This document shows positions 12,046-41,971 of a stretch of 64,000 nucleotides of DNA, piece after piece. The translations under genes and the position numbers were made by a program. Each line of letters opens with the position of its first letter. The first letter of the stretch is position 1. The notes beneath the pieces are model-generated. The model did not search any database. It worked only from the letters and a program-made list of their open reading frames with translations, and was not told where the DNA came from. The stretch lies in the sequence record PX880102.1, one strand, 5' to 3'. The DNA comes from a phage.

Positions 12046-13859
12046 TGGTGTTTAACCCTATGCATGATTTCTTTATTTTTACCGAGATTAAATCCGCGTT
12101 CGTTCGGATTTCCCAAATAACCGCATGTTCTTCTTATGGTATTCATCTTTTTAGGATCAGTTTCTCCACAAATAGAACAAACAAATCCGTTTTCAGTAGG
12201 AGTCATTTCATGGGTACTTCCGCATGTAAAACATTTATCTACTGGCATATTAACACCAAAATAATCTAAATGTTGTGCAGCATAATCCCACACGGCCTCA
12301 AGACCTTTTAAGTTATTTTTCATATCAGGAAGTTCAACATAAGAAATGTGACCACCTGTCGCAATGAAATGATATGGTGCTTCGCGAGAAATCTTTTCAA
12401 ACGGAGTAATATTTTCTTCTACTGAAACATGGAAACTGTTAGTGTACCAACCTTTATCGGTAACATCCTTTACACTTCCATATTTTTCGGTATCAAGTTT
12501 ACAGAAGCGATAACAAAGGTTTTCAGCAGGAGTAGAATACAAGCTAAAAGCAAACCCAGTTCTTTCAGTCCACTGCTTAAGACGAGCATTCATTTTAGTT
12601 AAAATTTCCTGTCCAATATCACGACCGACAAGAATATTCAATTCGTGAATACCAATGTATCCTAGAGACACTGAACTTCTGCCATTTTTAAATAACTCAA
12701 TTATGTCGTCATCAGGTTTAAGACGAACCCCGAATGCGCCTTCTTGGTAAAGAATAGGAGCAACAGTCGCTTTAACTCCTTTTAAGGAACTAATTCTACA
12801 CATCAAAGCTTCAAAACACAAATCCATTCGTTCATTGAATAATTCAACAAATTTCTGTTCATTGAATTGTGTTCCAATATAAGAATCTAACGCGATGCGA
12901 GGAAGATTCAGTGTTACAACGCCAAGATTATTACGTCCATCAAGAATTTCATTACCAGTCGAATCTTTCCATACGCTCAAGAAACTACGGCAACCCATTG
13001 GAGAAACAGGAATAGATGAGCCGGTGATAACTTTATTGTTCTTAGCTGAAATAATATCAGGATACATTCTTTTGCTTGCACACTCTAAAGCAAGCTGCTT
13101 AATATCATAGTTCGGATCGTCTTTATAAAGATTAACACCTTCTTCAACGAACATAACAAGCTTAGGGAAAATAGGAGTTATCCCATCACGACCAAGACCT
13201 TTAATACGATTTTTCAGAATTGCTTTCTGAATCATTCGTTCAGTCCAGTCAGTTCCTGTACCAAATGTAATTGTTACAAAAGGTGTTTGTCCGTTTGAGC
13301 TAAAGAGAGTATTTACTTCATATTCATAAGCTTGGAATGCATCGTATACATCTTTTTCTGTTTTAGATTGAGCATAATTCAACGCATCAGCGATTTGCCA
13401 TTTTTCTGCATCCTCAATATGTTTTGCATAGGTGCGTTTAACATAAGGAGAAAGTACTTTATCTACATTAGCAAAAGTCGTTCCGCCGTATTGATGGGAA
13501 GCAACCTGTGCAGTAATTTGTGCCATAATTGCAGTAGCAACACCGATTGATTTAGGAGTTTCAATCTGTGCATTACCAAGCTTAAATCCGTTCTCAAGCA
13601 TTCCTTTTAAATCTACTAAACAACAATTAGTAAATGGAAGAGCAGGGGAATAATCAATATCGTGGAAATGAATAATTCCGCTTTCATGCGCTTTCATAAT
13701 AAAAGACGGGACCATATTTTTGGCAATGTGTTTAGACACAATACCAGCCATAAGGTCCCGTTGAGTTGGAAAAACACGAGAATCTTTATTAGCATTCTCG
13801 TTTAAAAGGTCTTTATTAGTTTTATGAATCAATCCTTCAATTTCTTTTTCAATTGTCAT
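12042..13859 (-). CDS. nrdD: anaerobic ribonucleoside-triphosphate reductase
   Basis: 605 aa uninterrupted ORF; C-terminal glycyl-radical motif RRTCGYLG and Cys-rich zinc ribbon; 4-nt overlap with nrdG. Confidence 0.92.
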   Translation of the reverse strand: MTIEKEIEGLIHKTNKDLLNENANKDSRVFPTQRDLMAGIVSKHIAKNMVPSFIMKAHESGIIHFHDIDYSPALPFTNCCLVDLKGMLENGFKLGNAQIETPKSIGVATAIMAQITAQVASHQYGGTTFANVDKVLSPYVKRTYAKHIEDAEKWQIADALNYAQSKTEKDVYDAFQAYEYEVNTLFSSNGQTPFVTITFGTGTDWTERMIQKAILKNRIKGLGRDGITPIFPKLVMFVEEGVNLYKDDPNYDIKQLALECASKRMYPDIISAKNNKVITGSSIPVSPMGCRSFLSVWKDSTGNEILDGRNNLGVVTLNLPRIALDSYIGTQFNEQKFVELFNERMDLCFEALMCRISSLKGVKATVAPILYQEGAFGVRLKPDDDIIELFKNGRSSVSLGYIGIHELNILVGRDIGQEILTKMNARLKQWTERTGFAFSLYSTPAENLCYRFCKLDTEKYGSVKDVTDKGWYTNSFHVSVEENITPFEKISREAPYHFIATGGHISYVELPDMKNNLKGLEAVWDYAAQHLDYFGVNMPVDKCFTCGSTHEMTPTENGFVCSICGETDPKKMNTIRRTCGYLGNPNERGFNLGKNKEIMHRVKHQ

Positions 13860-14329
13860 TTTAAACTCTTTCTAAGCTGCTTCTTAAATGAAGCTATTAG
13901 TTGTGTTTTAGTGTCAGATTCATTATATTCAAATCCTCTTTGAAGCATCTCGGCCATCATTTCCTCTTTTCCTAAACGAGAAAATTCCTTTGATTTATCT
14001 CCAACAAAGTTAGGGTGAATATTATTTTGGGTGTAATCGGATTTTAAATAAGTAAGTAAATTTTCTAACCATTCAAGATAATCAACACCTTGTCCCTTTA
14101 AGCCAGAACGATTAAATTTATGCTTCATTTGACCTTCTGCGGCATTGCAGAGATTACAAAGCAATCCACGTACCTTTCCTGCTTTTGGTCCATTTAATTC
14201 ATGGTCATGGTCAAGGTGATTAGCTTGAACATCAGGATTTAGTTCTCGTTGGCAAATTAAGCATTTACCGTTTTGTGCATCATAAAATTTCTGTTTTTCT
14301 TCTTTATATAATTTGCCAGTCAATAACAT
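13856..14329 (-). CDS. 49: endonuclease VII (Holliday junction resolvase)
   Basis: 157 aa; Cys/His-rich N-terminus; ATG start. Confidence 0.9.
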   Translation of the reverse strand: MLLTGKLYKEEKQKFYDAQNGKCLICQRELNPDVQANHLDHDHELNGPKAGKVRGLLCNLCNAAEGQMKHKFNRSGLKGQGVDYLEWLENLLTYLKSDYTQNNIHPNFVGDKSKEFSRLGKEEMMAEMLQRGFEYNESDTKTQLIASFKKQLRKSLK

Positions 14330-39382: not shown

Positions 39383-39458
39383 TGGTCGAGGCAGTAGGGA
39401 TCGAACCTACGACCTAGGACTTAGAAGGTCCTTGCTCTTCCTTCTGAGCTATGCCCCG
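39383..39458 (-). tRNA. tRNA-Arg (anticodon UCU)
   Basis: Hand-folded cloverleaf; anticodon loop CUUCUAA; T-loop GGTTCGATC; encoded CCA. Confidence 0.85.
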
Positions 39459-39462
39459 TAAT

Positions 39463-39538
39463 TGGGGTGACCGATGGGAGTCGAACCCATGACTACGAGA
39501 ATCACAATCTCGAGTTCTACCAACTGAACTACGGCCAC
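39463..39538 (-). tRNA. tRNA-His (anticodon GUG)
   Basis: Hand-folded cloverleaf; anticodon loop UUGUGAU; discriminator C; CCA encoded; no G at -1. Confidence 0.75.
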
Positions 39539-39652
39539 ATTAATACCTACTCCAACAATCAAGATGTCTTCACACGAAATTAAGAGAAGAGTGATCAGTT
39601 CAACCCCTATAATCGCGTCAAGTAGATATTATTGTGACAGTTGTCACAAATT

Positions 39653-39727
39653 TGGCGGACGTGATAGGATTCGAACCTATAACCAATCGCTTAACAGGCG
39701 ATCGCTCTGCCATTGAGCTACACATCC
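39653..39727 (-). tRNA. tRNA-Asn (anticodon GUU)
   Basis: Hand-folded cloverleaf; anticodon stem ATCGC/GCGAT, loop CUGUUAA; CCA encoded. Confidence 0.8.
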
Positions 39728-39731
39728 AAAT

Positions 39732-39818
39732 TGGTGGGGAGTGATGGAGTCGAACCACCCGAGTCGCAATGACAATGGATTTACAGTCCACACCGCTACC
39801 TCTACGGGATAACTCCCC
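39732..39818 (-). tRNA. tRNA-Tyr (anticodon GUA), class II
   Basis: 87 nt; anticodon loop CUGUAAA; long variable arm; acceptor GGGGAGT/ACTCCCC; D-arm pairing not fully resolved by hand. Confidence 0.7.
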
Positions 39819-39831
39819 TTAATTCTTAATT

Positions 39832-39906
39832 TGGTGGCCCTGGGTGGAATTGAACCACCATCTGGCGATTATGAGTCGCTTGCTTGAACCTTCCAGCTAC
39901 AGGGCC
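39832..39906 (-). tRNA. tRNA-Ile (anticodon CAU, presumably lysidine-modified) or tRNA-Met
   Basis: Anticodon loop CUCAUAA; T4 tRNA-Ile is known to carry a CAU-derived anticodon; CCA encoded. Confidence 0.75.
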
Positions 39907-39907
39907 T

Positions 39908-39983
39908 TGGTGCTGATTGACGGAATCGAACCGCCGACCTTCTCATTACAAGTGAGTTGCTCTACCTACTGAGCTAAATCAGC
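39908..39983 (-). tRNA. tRNA-Thr (anticodon UGU)
   Basis: Anticodon loop CUUGUAA; T-loop GGTTCGATT; CCA encoded. Confidence 0.85.
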
Positions 39984-39988
39984 AAAAC

Positions 39989-40078
39989 TGGCGGAGGCGA
40001 TAGGATTTGAACCTATGAGTCGCCGGAGCGACTGCCGGTTTTCAAGACCGGTGCATTAAACCACTCTGCCACGCCTCC
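39989..40078 (-). tRNA. tRNA-Ser (anticodon UGA), class II
   Basis: 90 nt; anticodon loop CUUGAAA; long variable arm; 2-nt spacer to tRNA-Pro as in the T4 Pro-Ser dimeric precursor. Confidence 0.85.
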
Positions 40079-40080
40079 AG

Positions 40081-40154
40081 TCTCCATACAAGGATTTGAA
40101 CCTTGGACCTCCTGATCCCAAATCAGGCGCTCTACCAAACTGAGCTACACGGAG
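40081..40154 (-). tRNA. tRNA-Pro (anticodon UGG)
   Basis: Anticodon loop UUUGGGA; CCA not encoded (as recalled for T4 tRNA-Pro). Confidence 0.85.
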
Positions 40155-40164
40155 TAAATTAAAT

Positions 40165-40238
<74 letters not shown>

Positions 40239-40243
40239 AAATT

Positions 40244-40330
40244 TGGTGCGAGAAGTGGGACTCGAACCCACAAGGAAATCATTCCGCAGCATTTTAAGTG
40301 CTGTGCCTTTACCAATTTGACCATTCTCGC
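40244..40330 (-). tRNA. tRNA-Leu (anticodon UAA), class II
   Basis: 87 nt; anticodon loop CUUAAAA; long variable arm; CCA encoded. Confidence 0.85.
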
Positions 40331-40336
40331 GCTATA

Positions 40337-40945
40337 TTATTTATTACGTGAAAAAGACTGTTCTATCAATTCTGGACACTTTCGTTCTATCCATTTTCTA
40401 GCTTTTTGTGGGCTTATACCTATTATTTTAGCAGCTTTACTAACCCATCCAAATTTAGAATAATCGATTTTAACTAATTCTTCGTAAATTTCATCAGTTA
40501 AAATCTTTTCATTAATATTTACCAGTAAATGATATAATTTATTATCATTAGCAATTTTAATGAATCTTTTATAGTTTCCGCCTTTACTTAAACCTAATGA
40601 AGTAATTGCAGATGATATAGTAGCCGAATTTAATAACGCGTTTAAAATTTCTTCATCACTAACATTATAACGCTTTTTATTATTTTTAATATTTTTACCA
40701 GCAAAAGTATCAGTTTGCGAATGGCAGTTTGGACATAATAATCTTAAATTAGATTTAAGATGATTTTTGTTATTTCCATCAATATGGTCTAATTGCAGAA
40801 CAATATGCTTATTTTGCCATTTTGAAATTTTACAAATTGCACACTCATATGGAAAAATATTTTCTTTTATTATTTTGTCTTTCAGCTTTCCTGTACTAAA
40901 ATTTGGATGTTTTCCTTCAAAAATTTCAGCTAATTTAGTATCCAT
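40337..40945 (-). CDS. HNH-family endonuclease (free-standing homing-endonuclease-like)
   Basis: ATG at 40945 gives 202 aa (track start is TTG at 40969); motif HIVLQLDHIDGNNKNHLKSNLRLLCPNCH plus upstream CAIC; stop 6 nt before tRNA-Leu. Confidence 0.8.
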   Translation of the reverse strand: MDTKLAEIFEGKHPNFSTGKLKDKIIKENIFPYECAICKISKWQNKHIVLQLDHIDGNNKNHLKSNLRLLCPNCHSQTDTFAGKNIKNNKKRYNVSDEEILNALLNSATISSAITSLGLSKGGNYKRFIKIANDNKLYHLLVNINEKILTDEIYEELVKIDYSKFGWVSKAAKIIGISPQKARKWIERKCPELIEQSFSRNK

Positions 40946-41055
40946 AATATAATTCCCAATTATTAACAAAGGCTCTTAAGCAAGAACCCTTGATGATAGA
41001 GGGTATTAATCAGTGCGATATGAGTTAATAATAACAAATAATTCTTAAAGCATAT

Positions 41056-41941: not shown

Positions 41942-41971
41942 ATAGTATCACAACTAAAACCCTATGTAAAC
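41942..41971 (-). promoter_or_regulatory. early promoter
   Basis: Minus strand TTTCACAAAGTTGTTTACA-N17-TGATACTAT. Confidence 0.6.

Follow-up and report, generated by a model that had tools for sequence, protein, structure and literature searches.

Why does an endonuclease gene stand at the head of a tRNA cluster in this phage, how did it come to be there, and what does its presence mean for the tRNA repertoire? T4-like phages are a group famous for homing endonucleases, and current work treats the tRNAs of phages as a means of escaping defences that cleave tRNAs. In the stretch of 64,000 nucleotides analysed here (the window), which belongs to a Tequatrovirus, we consider it quite probable that the gene encodes a free-standing homing endonuclease of the T5 F-TflIV family and has been kept intact by selection, and that it replaced tRNA-Gln, has spread by recombination and homes into genomes lacking it.

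The gene occupies 40337..40945 on the minus strand, running from an ATG at 40945 to a TAA at 40339..40337 and encoding 202 aa plus the stop codon; a mechanical ORF list gives a longer version beginning at a TTG at 40969, and the ATG is the start that agrees with the RefSeq annotation and with the N-termini of homologues. Since the phrog_14736 profile matches the protein end to end (residues 1-202/202, E = 5e-124), this is not a chance ORF. The earlier note had described an HNH motif with an upstream CxxC, and the core is indeed intact: residues 35-75 (40721..40843, minus strand) hold C35xxC38, D53-H54, N66 and C71xxC74-H75, the motif DHIDGNNKNHLKSNLRLLCPNCH corresponding to residues 53-75 and the CxxC to C35/C38, with C35, C38, H54, N66, C71, C74 and H75 invariant among the 30 homologues compared. 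The structure model likewise predicts a beta-beta-alpha-metal (HNH) fold. The protein scores 17.3 bits against Pfam PF01844, under the gathering cut-off of 21.4, which we regard as an issue of sensitivity and no sign of another fold because homologues P0003, P0004, P0006 and P0007 have precomputed matches to this family; a PDB sequence search returned no meaningful match. Towards the C-terminus, a helix-turn-helix (HTH) module at residues ~151-189 (40379..40495, minus strand) is the presumed DNA-recognition domain, based on weak Pfam matches at residues 164-192, on modelled helices at 151-158, 167-175 and 179-189, and on conservation of the motif among homologues as well as T5 F-TflIV; another helical module, HTH-like in character, spans residues ~97-134. 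RefSeq homologues already carry the label 'HNH endonuclease', and an Rfam scan around the ORF found tRNAs only and no intron family. The gene is therefore free-standing, placed between the leader of the tRNA operon and tRNA-Leu and outside any intron or intein.

Downstream lies a cluster of 10 tRNAs in the order Leu, Gly, Pro, Ser, Thr, Met(cat), Tyr, Asn, His and Arg, in which tRNA-Leu(UAA) is promoter-proximal (40244..40330, minus strand; 98.9-100% identical across relatives with and without the HNH gene) and the remaining co-transcribed genes occupy 39383..40238 on the same strand. The Met/Ile(CAU) gene of this cluster is annotated as Ile in T4. As ARAGORN places tRNA-Leu(taa) at 40244..40330 and the ORF ends at 40337, the spacer is 6 nt (40331..40336, minus strand; TATAGC in transcript sense), the distance previously reported, and the junction reads TATA[G/A][C/A] in 9/9 HNH-carrying genomes examined. 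It had also been noted that tRNA-Gln, the first tRNA of T4, could not be found here and had possibly been displaced; the T4 annotation confirms that position, ARAGORN detects no tRNA-Gln in the whole 64 kb, and the displacement can be read from an alignment of the window locus with T4 and phage 4E10 (alignment A1), in which the ORF takes the place of tRNA-Gln precisely from nt 10 to the 3' end. The first 9 nt of the lost tRNA, TGGGAATTA, survive as a remnant at 40950..40958 (minus strand), just 5' of the HNH start codon, and read TGGGAAT[T/C]A in 9/9 HNH-carrying genomes examined; between remnant and ATG stands a 4-nt leader borne by the cassette (TATT, 40946..40949, minus strand; alignment A1 and junction table). 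These junctions show that, in one ancestral Tequatrovirus event, all of tRNA-Gln beyond its first 9 nt gave way to a ~0.6-kb HNH cassette immediately ahead of tRNA-Leu.

From which family did this cassette come? T5 F-TflIV (hegA) also matches phrog_14736 (E = 1.5e-81) and aligns with the window protein at 34.7% identity over 170 aa (E = 1e-21); it is one of F-TflI/II/IV, site-specific endonucleases of HNH type that belong to the tRNA region of T5 (Akulenko et al. 2004, cited in PMC2330249 and PMC5714182). The two proteins share the CxxC...H...N...CPNCH core and a C-terminal HTH, and both genes lie inside a tRNA cluster and are co-oriented with the tRNAs. However, F-TflIV has an extra N-terminal HTH of ~55 aa and is without the middle helical module; its gene follows tRNA-Ile2 by 23 nt, whereas the HNH gene precedes tRNA-Leu; replacement of a tRNA is undocumented for it, unlike for the HNH gene; and the phages belong to different families (T5 to the Demerecviridae, the window to the Straboviridae). 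Within the family, site-specific endonuclease activity has been published only for the T5 enzymes (cited in PMC2330249). The tRNA habit extends well beyond these two cases. When 80 IMG/VR relatives of the protein were compared with 80 Mob-like controls at a limit of 100 nt, 49/80 relatives (61%) were found within that distance of a tRNA, against 2/80 controls (2.5%; p = 4e-17), and 444/501 tRNAs were co-oriented, which strongly indicates that F-TflIV-like endonucleases are specialised for phage tRNA gene clusters. This preference is likely due to the conservation of tRNA genes as targets and to the tolerance of insertions by the spacers of a processed polycistronic precursor.

This placement also bears on the idea that the protein is no DNA homing enzyme at all and acts on another substrate or in another process (DNA packaging, repair, RNA), its proximity to tRNAs being incidental. 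HNH domains do have many roles (PMC5714182), and the top NCBIfam match of the protein is the HNH part of IscB, at merely 26 bits; however, placement in co-oriented tRNA clusters across a whole family is not incidental, an HNH core joined to HTH DNA-binding modules is the architecture of a homing endonuclease, the nearest characterised relative bears the name of a site-specific endonuclease (ref. 18 of PMC2330249), and most relatives dispense with the gene. We find this reading extremely improbable.

T4 itself offers further points of comparison, and here the earlier suggestion of a free-standing endonuclease unlike those of T4 is borne out: the window protein falls in phrog_14736, the T4 Mob proteins in phrog_655 and SegB in phrog_314. 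SegB, like the HNH gene product, is encoded by a free-standing homing-endonuclease gene within the same Tequatrovirus tRNA cluster, where segB too takes the place of tRNA genes, those for Tyr, Asn and His in the window; SegB has been proven to bias inheritance towards the tRNA region of T4, and it cuts within tRNA genes (PMC2330249). However, its catalysis is of the unrelated GIY-YIG type, as the T4 annotation and the earlier note agree, and the HNH protein shows no sequence similarity to it and has no GIY-YIG domain; segB sits on the Arg/Ile side of the cluster, whereas the HNH slot is that of Gln; and the two genes assort independently, all four combinations of presence and absence being found. 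Another SegB-like endonuclease of the RB18/CM8 type (GIY-YIG, with a divergent C-terminus) swaps one-for-one with tRNA-Pro in the same cluster; its C-terminal HTH resembles that of the HNH protein at 50% identity over 24 aa, a weak likeness that is not statistically secure, and both proteins weakly match phrog_16521, although the catalytic domain again differs from ours in being GIY-YIG. MobE is the proven enzyme among the T4 Mob endonucleases. MobA-E are, like the HNH protein, free-standing HNH-class homing endonucleases of His-Me finger group 1 (PMC5714182), but blastp and phmmer gave no significant similarity of the HNH protein to MobB/C/D/E, I-TevIII, MobA or SegB, the best blastp match to a Mob protein being MobE at E = 0.11 and outside the HNH core; and Mob-like genes, unlike the relatives of the HNH protein, almost never lie near tRNAs.

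If the cassette entered once, has it stayed put? Among GenBank phages, 64 records carry the HNH allele against 448 with the tRNA-Gln/Leu junction (~12%, or about one record in eight), the allele spans at least eight ICTV species, and HNH-carrying and HNH-less states interleave on flank trees with five sister pairs of opposite state; KarlGJung (with the gene) and HP3 (without) differ by 12 + 10 mismatches or gaps in 3 kb per side (22 over both flanks, 6 kb together). Universality in the lineage, one of two outcomes named beforehand as fatal to the proposal, is thus refuted, and the allele has been shown to have moved among Tequatrovirus genomes by recombination since the ancestral event. Part of the distribution may nevertheless be old and vertical, because homologues of 58-68% identity occupy the syntenic slot in other T4-like lineages. 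The six IMG/VR loci retrieved with the trna.2 protein included none with the HNH gene. Furthermore, the patchiness could stem from ordinary recombination in either direction, and this leads to the view of the gene as a passive passenger, once mobile and no longer homing, whose scatter reflects only the very high general recombination of co-infecting T4-like phages that also shuffles the tRNA-Gln allele. The flank trees conflict with one another, a sign of rampant recombination in any case; activity is unproven for several T4 Mob genes (PMC2988022); and no co-conversion tract is visible, because the SNPs of tRNA-Leu/Gly and of the 106-nt leader upstream show no grouping by HNH state. However, a non-functional ORF should gain nonsynonymous and frameshift changes, and the variation in the gene consists of 18 synonymous and 2 called nonsynonymous sites, with an in-frame 9-nt duplication as the sole length change; all 64 records are at least 95% identical to the 202-aa query, which is covered in one piece in every match among those listed. 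With pN/pS at 0.021 (neighbouring genes 0.016-0.35) and invariant catalytic residues, purifying selection on the gene is strong, the second fatal outcome, a degenerate remnant, is refuted, and we judge the passenger view very unlikely.

Purifying selection as strong as that on the essential neighbours 57A and 57B raises the converse question of whether the nuclease has been domesticated and benefits its phage without being a selfish driver, whether by cutting competitors (partial exclusion) or by promoting recombination at the tRNA locus and its segmental amplification to counter host defences. At synonymous sites the gene is only a little less diverse (pS 0.050) than its neighbours (0.067-0.21), which gives no sign of a very recent sweep and implies long residence, and other T4-like lineages have retained homologues in this slot. 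SegB amplifies the tRNA-segB locus against Septu (PMC13096335), and CM8, with two homing endonucleases in the cluster, has an adjoining tandem ipI-Ip5-57B duplication. However, carriage in only ~12% of records and the existence of near-identical phages without the gene make a pattern unlike that of a generally beneficial gene, its presence costs one tRNA gene, and the proposal overlaps mechanistically with homing in that both need the same cleavage activity; we therefore hold a benefit of this kind, in place of selfish drive, to be unlikely.

The reading we prefer remains that of a homing endonuclease that is probably active. The earlier note proposed that it may drive preferential inheritance of the tRNA region in mixed infections, and we infer the same from the patchiness and the near-isogenic pairs. 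When an HNH-carrying and an HNH-less phage share a cell, the enzyme would break one or both strands of the HNH-less genome at or near tRNA-Gln, and repair templated by the other genome would insert the cassette and remove tRNA-Gln. As tRNA-Gln is the sole sequence that consistently separates the two alleles, its loss would also give the carrier self-immunity.

Taken alone, the HNH gene is a fairly ordinary element, one more homing endonuclease, and HNH genes in tRNA arrays have had anecdotal mention before (PMC6409571), although our literature search turned up no account of this gene or of the loss of tRNA-Gln to it. What the locus adds is the erasure of a tRNA gene by a selfish gene resolved to the nucleotide, with swaps of the same kind at two further places in this cluster (segB, and the RB18-type SegB-like gene at tRNA-Pro). 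Because near-isogenic pairs with and without the gene exist in nature, including Bas37/KarlGJung in the public BASEL collection, crosses should be easy; and given the interest in phage tRNAs as escapes from defence and the amplification of the tRNA locus by SegB against Septu, the enzyme is a ready test case for selfish nucleases shaping anti-defence tRNA content. One of the defences that target tRNAs, retron Eco2, cleaves tRNA-Gln (PMC12916289).

The exchange is not confined to Gln, since a T4-like phage of Klebsiella has a 68% homologue exactly in place of tRNA-Asn, an independent parallel to the swap described here. The sequence 'GCGAGA...' that follows the Klebsiella homologue was considered as a decayed tRNA-Leu or an intron-bearing tRNA and set aside for want of support: ARAGORN and Rfam were negative and an HNH-less relative has the same sequence. 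It is conceivable, though we lean somewhat against it at present, that the F-TflIV-like HNH-HTH family as a whole consists of dedicated tRNA-gene-recognising homing elements, a second and unrelated counterpart of SegB, spreading through the tRNA clusters of many phage lineages and remodelling repertoires by tRNA-for-endonuclease swaps (Gln here, Asn in the Klebsiella phage). If so, these elements would trade selfish spread against anti-defence capacity, a direct trade-off because phage tRNAs are now regarded as counter-defence genes, and they might seed amplification of the locus as SegB does.

How would such a gene be expressed? The T4 middle-promoter consensus is well established, and reading alignment A1 against it gives a T4 middle-promoter-like site at 41028..41052 (minus strand), with a MotA box TGCTTTA (41052..41046), a 12-nt spacer and a -10 element TATTAT (41033..41028), the columns of which are invariant in T4, 4E10 and slur14; this candidate MotA-type site is already there in HNH-less phages, as a likely promoter of the tRNA cluster. 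Further upstream, a T4 early-promoter-like site (TTTACA-17-TACTAT, 41942..41970, minus strand) precedes trna.4-trna.3-trna.2-HNH-tRNAs, and no terminator-like site was found between the upstream promoters and the tRNA cluster. The HNH gene may thus be carried on the transcript that the tRNA operon already had, started by an early promoter ~1 kb away and by a middle promoter of MotA type ~80 nt away, both upstream, with translation starting from a weak Shine-Dalgarno-like GGGA, 8 nt 5' of the ATG, that the tRNA-Gln remnant now provides. Since segB adjoins the next tRNA, its transcript is cut by tRNA processing (PMC2330249); similarly, RNase P maturation of tRNA-Leu would be expected to cut the HNH mRNA in the TATAGC spacer, 6 nt past the stop codon, and low expression is expected because of this cut, as proposed for segB. 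Finally, a conserved leader hairpin, found in T4 too, is predicted at 40967..40992 (minus strand), and the predicted leader fold (dG -22.7 kcal/mol, z = -2.1; 7/200 shuffles fold as well) is marginal and suggestive of pairing of the Shine-Dalgarno sequence and AUG with upstream sequence.

On the minus strand of the window, the HNH gene runs from an ATG at 40945 to a TAA at 40339..40337 and encodes 202 aa; a mechanical ORF list gives a longer version starting with TTG at 40969, and it is ATG 40945 that agrees with the start in RefSeq relatives and with the N-termini of homologues. The HNH motif and upstream CxxC that the earlier note had read in this ORF are present (residues 53-75, DHIDGNNKNHLKSNLRLLCPNCH; residues 35-38, CAIC), and ARAGORN, with which Rfam is concordant on the window tRNAs, places 10 tRNAs on the same strand (39383-40330), the promoter-proximal member being tRNA-Leu(taa) (40244..40330, minus strand), which is separated from the stop codon by 6 nt just as had been described. 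Also as reported there, the ARAGORN scan of the 64-kb window contains no tRNA-Gln, and the T4 annotation agrees that tRNA-Gln is first in the T4 cluster and that T4 segB encodes a GIY-YIG enzyme. The gene order (dNMP kinase (gene 1), 57A, 57B, ipI, trna.4, trna.3, trna.2, HNH gene, tRNAs, all on the minus strand) is the same as in T4, and the 3.3 kb around the gene are up to 98.2% identical to sequences of the Tequatrovirus (T4-like) phages slur03, slur08 and slur14. The gene is already annotated in public records, with the RefSeq orthologue labeled "HNH endonuclease" and other submitters using "H-N-H endonuclease F-TflIV" or "putative homing endonuclease"; a literature search found no paper on it or on the replacement of tRNA-Gln.

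The slot of the HNH ORF is held by tRNA-Gln in both T4 and 4E10, the latter being 98.3% identical to the window over the matched 81% of a 3.3-kb query. When the window is aligned with T4, 4E10 and slur14, the leader from trna.2 to the site is nearly invariant across all four phages, the window keeps the 5'-most 9 nt of tRNA-Gln (TGGGAATTA) at 40958..40950, and after this remnant come TATT, the 609-nt ORF, TATAG(C) and a tRNA-Leu that is identical in all four. These boundaries indicate that tRNA-Gln was replaced by a cassette from its nt 10 to its 3' end, and the displacement of this tRNA by the endonuclease gene, previously only suspected, is borne out against both T4 and 4E10. The same junctions (upstream TGGGAAT[T/C]A-TATT-ATG, downstream TAA-TATA[G/A][C/A]-GCGAG) occur in 9/9 genomes examined that carry the gene (HNH+), a common architecture that points to a single founding event for the cassette. 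Within Tequatrovirus, two tRNA-Gln(UUG) alleles sharing only 89% identity occupy the equivalent of window 40946-40958 (T4, locus L004 3959-4031; 4E10, locus L002 2832-2904), making three states of the slot with the HNH allele included; all 5/5 anticodon-stem pairs differ in a fully compensatory manner (TAGCA/TGCTA vs CTGGA/TCCAG), as do loop positions 32 and 38. Phage tRNAs that evade anticodon nucleases have been proposed to diverge in the anticodon stem-loop in this way. A further presence/absence polymorphism is seen directly upstream of the site: CM8 (L003 3854-4369), phiD1 (L012 4709-5224) and RB18 (L019 4389-4904) have a 516-nt RB32ORF135c-like ORF between trna.2 and the HNH/tRNA-Gln slot, and the window, T4 and 4E10 lack it.

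Among GenBank/RefSeq phage records, 64 carry the HNH DNA, at one copy per genome and 97.9-99.7% identity, and 448 an intact tRNA-Gln/tRNA-Leu junction, both counts being approximate because duplicate records are included; universal presence in the lineage, which the earlier note had contemplated, is thus not what is seen. The HNH+ genomes span at least eight ICTV species (slur03, cm8, sgallinarium, deeone, pyps2t, hy03, snuabm and pd112) and carry the gene with or without T4-type segB, all four HNH/segB combinations being found. On neighbour-joining trees of five flanking segments, HNH+ and tRNA-Gln genomes are interleaved, with opposite-state sister pairs in slur14/slur13, window/4E10, KarlGJung/HP3, CM8/Aplg8 and pSe_SNUABM_01/an IMG/VR contig; KarlGJung (HNH+) and HP3 (tRNA-Gln) are separated by just 12 mismatches or gaps in the 3-kb flank on one side and 10 in that on the other, so their exchange must be very recent. 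As read from these genome comparisons, the data show that the HNH allele moved by recombination, with the direction not given by these data alone. Two signatures expected of mobility are missing, since no SNPs directly beside the site sort by HNH/tRNA-Gln state and the pS of the gene (0.050) is only moderately lower than that of its neighbours (0.067-0.21).

The gene is also far from the degenerate remnant that the earlier note had allowed for: among eight equal-length alleles, 18 variable sites are synonymous and 2 are called nonsynonymous, both calls coming from phiD1, whose record has N bases at two further sites, and pN/pS averages 0.021, close to the values of 57B (0.016) and 57A (0.030). 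The 202-aa query is covered unbroken and at full length in every match listed, with at least 95% amino-acid identity in 64/64 records and at least 99% in 59/64, and KarlGJung provides the sole length variant seen, a 9-nt duplication that stays in frame. Such synonymous-only variation makes it improbable that the gene is a passive passenger moved around by general recombination. Strong constraint and long residence would fit a beneficial or domesticated nuclease, serving for example in competitor exclusion or in SegB-like amplification of the tRNA locus, for which there is precedent (PMC13096335), but a frequency of ~12% and the existence of HNH-less near-twins do not, and I consider this reading unlikely, if less so than that of a passenger.

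To which family does the enzyme belong? The protein matches phrog_14736 end to end (E = 5e-124), as does T5 F-TflIV (hegA; E = 1.5e-81), whose gene lies 23 nt past tRNA-Ile2 within the T5 tRNA region and whose product is 34.7% identical to the HNH protein over 170 aa (E = 1e-21). In contrast, T4 MobB, MobC, MobD and MobE all fall in phrog_655, T4 SegB and the second endonuclease of CM8 in phrog_314, and no significant similarity was found between the HNH protein and MobB/C/D/E, I-TevIII or MobA remnants, so that the Mob/Seg search once recommended upholds a family different from that of SegB. No relatives of MobB/C/D/E or SegB are encoded within the 64-kb window, although the positions equivalent to T4 mobB, mobC and mobD lie within it (gp49 at 13859-14329), and the HNH gene is the only comparison-panel endonuclease with a relative there. 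A C-terminal HTH segment (IDYSKFGWVSKAAKIIGISPQKAR) is 50% identical over 24 aa to the C-terminus of the RB18/CM8 SegB-like enzyme, and phrog_16521 is matched by both proteins, which hints, on statistically weak similarity, at a common DNA-binding module.

Closer homologues from assemblies occupy the syntenic position in other T4-like phages (gp2, gp3, dNMP kinase, 57A, 57B, trna.x genes, HNH gene, tRNAs), P0002 being 68% and P0003/P0004 58% identical, and 5/6 more distant homologues sampled are inside tRNA clusters, with the stop codon abutting or overlapping the next tRNA in 4/5. In two distant homologues (L030 3594-3603; L031 3549-3558), the tRNA-Lys gene that follows begins inside the ORF and shares its last ~10 nt, so the stop codon would be lost from the mRNA upon tRNA 5' processing, a layout close to that described for segB and tRNA-Arg in T4. 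When 80 IMG/VR loci with relatives of the HNH protein were compared with 80 control loci with T4 Mob-like HNH proteins, a tRNA was found at most 100 nt from the ORF in 49/80 vs 2/80 (Fisher p = 4e-17) and any tRNA within about 3 kb in 69/80 vs 4/80 (p = 7e-28), a control that separates two families and does not fully separate position in the cluster from life in tRNA-rich phages; short distances and co-orientation argue for the former, as the next tRNA overlaps the stop codon or lies at most 20 nt past it in 21/80 relatives and 444/501 tRNAs share the orientation of the gene. The commonest neighbours are tRNA-Leu downstream and tRNA-Gln or tRNA-Leu upstream, from which no specificity can be concluded because tRNA-Leu also outnumbers every other tRNA in those loci. 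The general idea is not new, as the T5 F-Tfl genes had already been placed in the tRNA region (PMC2330249) and a role in diversifying tRNA repertoires has been suggested for HNH genes found in tRNA arrays of mycobacteriophages (PMC6409571); of interest here are the quantified tRNA-cluster specialisation of the family and the natural near-isogenic pairs usable experimentally. The gene probably belongs to a known kind, the free-standing homing endonuclease genes of phage tRNA clusters like SegB and the T5 F-Tfl enzymes, and its architecture, closest characterised relative and family-wide tRNA-cluster habit make a non-homing role very improbable.

Also of interest is the tRNA-for-endonuclease swap at the nucleotide level and its recurrence. 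The flank of the P0002 contig (L024) is 97.5% identical to Klebsiella phage Kpn BM7, in which tRNA-Met, tRNA-Gln and tRNA-Asn are followed by TAAGAAGCGAGACC..., and L024 lacks tRNA-Asn, its HNH gene beginning 14 nt past tRNA-Gln and ending in the same TAAGAAGCGAG, which makes this an independent parallel to the replacement in the window; GenBank phage records encode no protein more than 80% identical to P0002. The RB18/CM8 SegB-like gene takes the exact place of tRNA-Pro of other Tequatrovirus genomes, and T4 segB stands in place of the window's Tyr, Asn and His (Tyr being kept in FJ1), so replacement of tRNAs by endonucleases is recurrent. Klebsiella T4-like phages have a conserved, relatively GC-rich segment of ~400 nt (L024 4604-5009; L196 7281-7723) that separates the tRNA-Asn/HNH slot from the tRNA-Met that follows. 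It is annotated with small hypothetical ORFs and unrecognised by ARAGORN and Rfam, its start, GCGAGACCAA, resembles the tRNA-Leu 5' end, and it may represent either a structured RNA or the remains of decayed tRNAs. The CM8 cluster holds both the HNH gene and the SegB-like gene, and immediately upstream of it (L003 5600-7410) is a tandem ipI-Ip5-57B (partial) repeat; it recalls the amplification of segments that was reported in 2026 to depend on SegB, though an assembly artefact could also account for it.

A T4 early-promoter-like site (TTTACA-17-TACTAT, 41970..41942, minus strand) lies upstream of trna.4 with no terminator-like site downstream of it, and on my own reading of the alignment the conserved leader contains a MotA-box-type middle-promoter match common to T4 (TGCTTTA at 41052..41046, a 12-nt spacer and TATTAT at 41033..41028, minus strand), so the ORF is expected to form the 5' part of the tRNA-precursor transcript. 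Translation would rely on the tRNA-Gln remnant, which contributes a weak SD-like sequence, GGGA, 8 nt ahead of the ATG; in the predicted leader fold (dG -22.7 kcal/mol, z = -2.1) SD and AUG pair with upstream sequence, a marginally supported resemblance to the sequestered ribosome-binding sites known from other endonuclease genes of T4 (PMC2988022). Maturation of tRNA-Leu by RNase P would then cut the mRNA 6 nt past the stop codon, and processing has been proposed as a similar limit on segB expression (PMC2330249). As tRNA-Gln is the only sequence consistently distinguishing the two alleles, the simplest model inferred is that the enzyme would nick or cut in or beside tRNA-Gln of an HNH-less co-infecting genome, the HNH+ genome being spared by deletion of the target, and that repair of the cut genome would copy the cassette in. 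Elsewhere in the cluster, a 114-nt spacer between tRNA-Asn and tRNA-His (window 39539-39652), with no tRNA or Rfam match, is missing jointly with tRNA-His in phiD1 (L012) and IMG/VR contig L007, where tRNA-Arg comes straight after tRNA-Asn, and is another indel polymorphism of the cluster.
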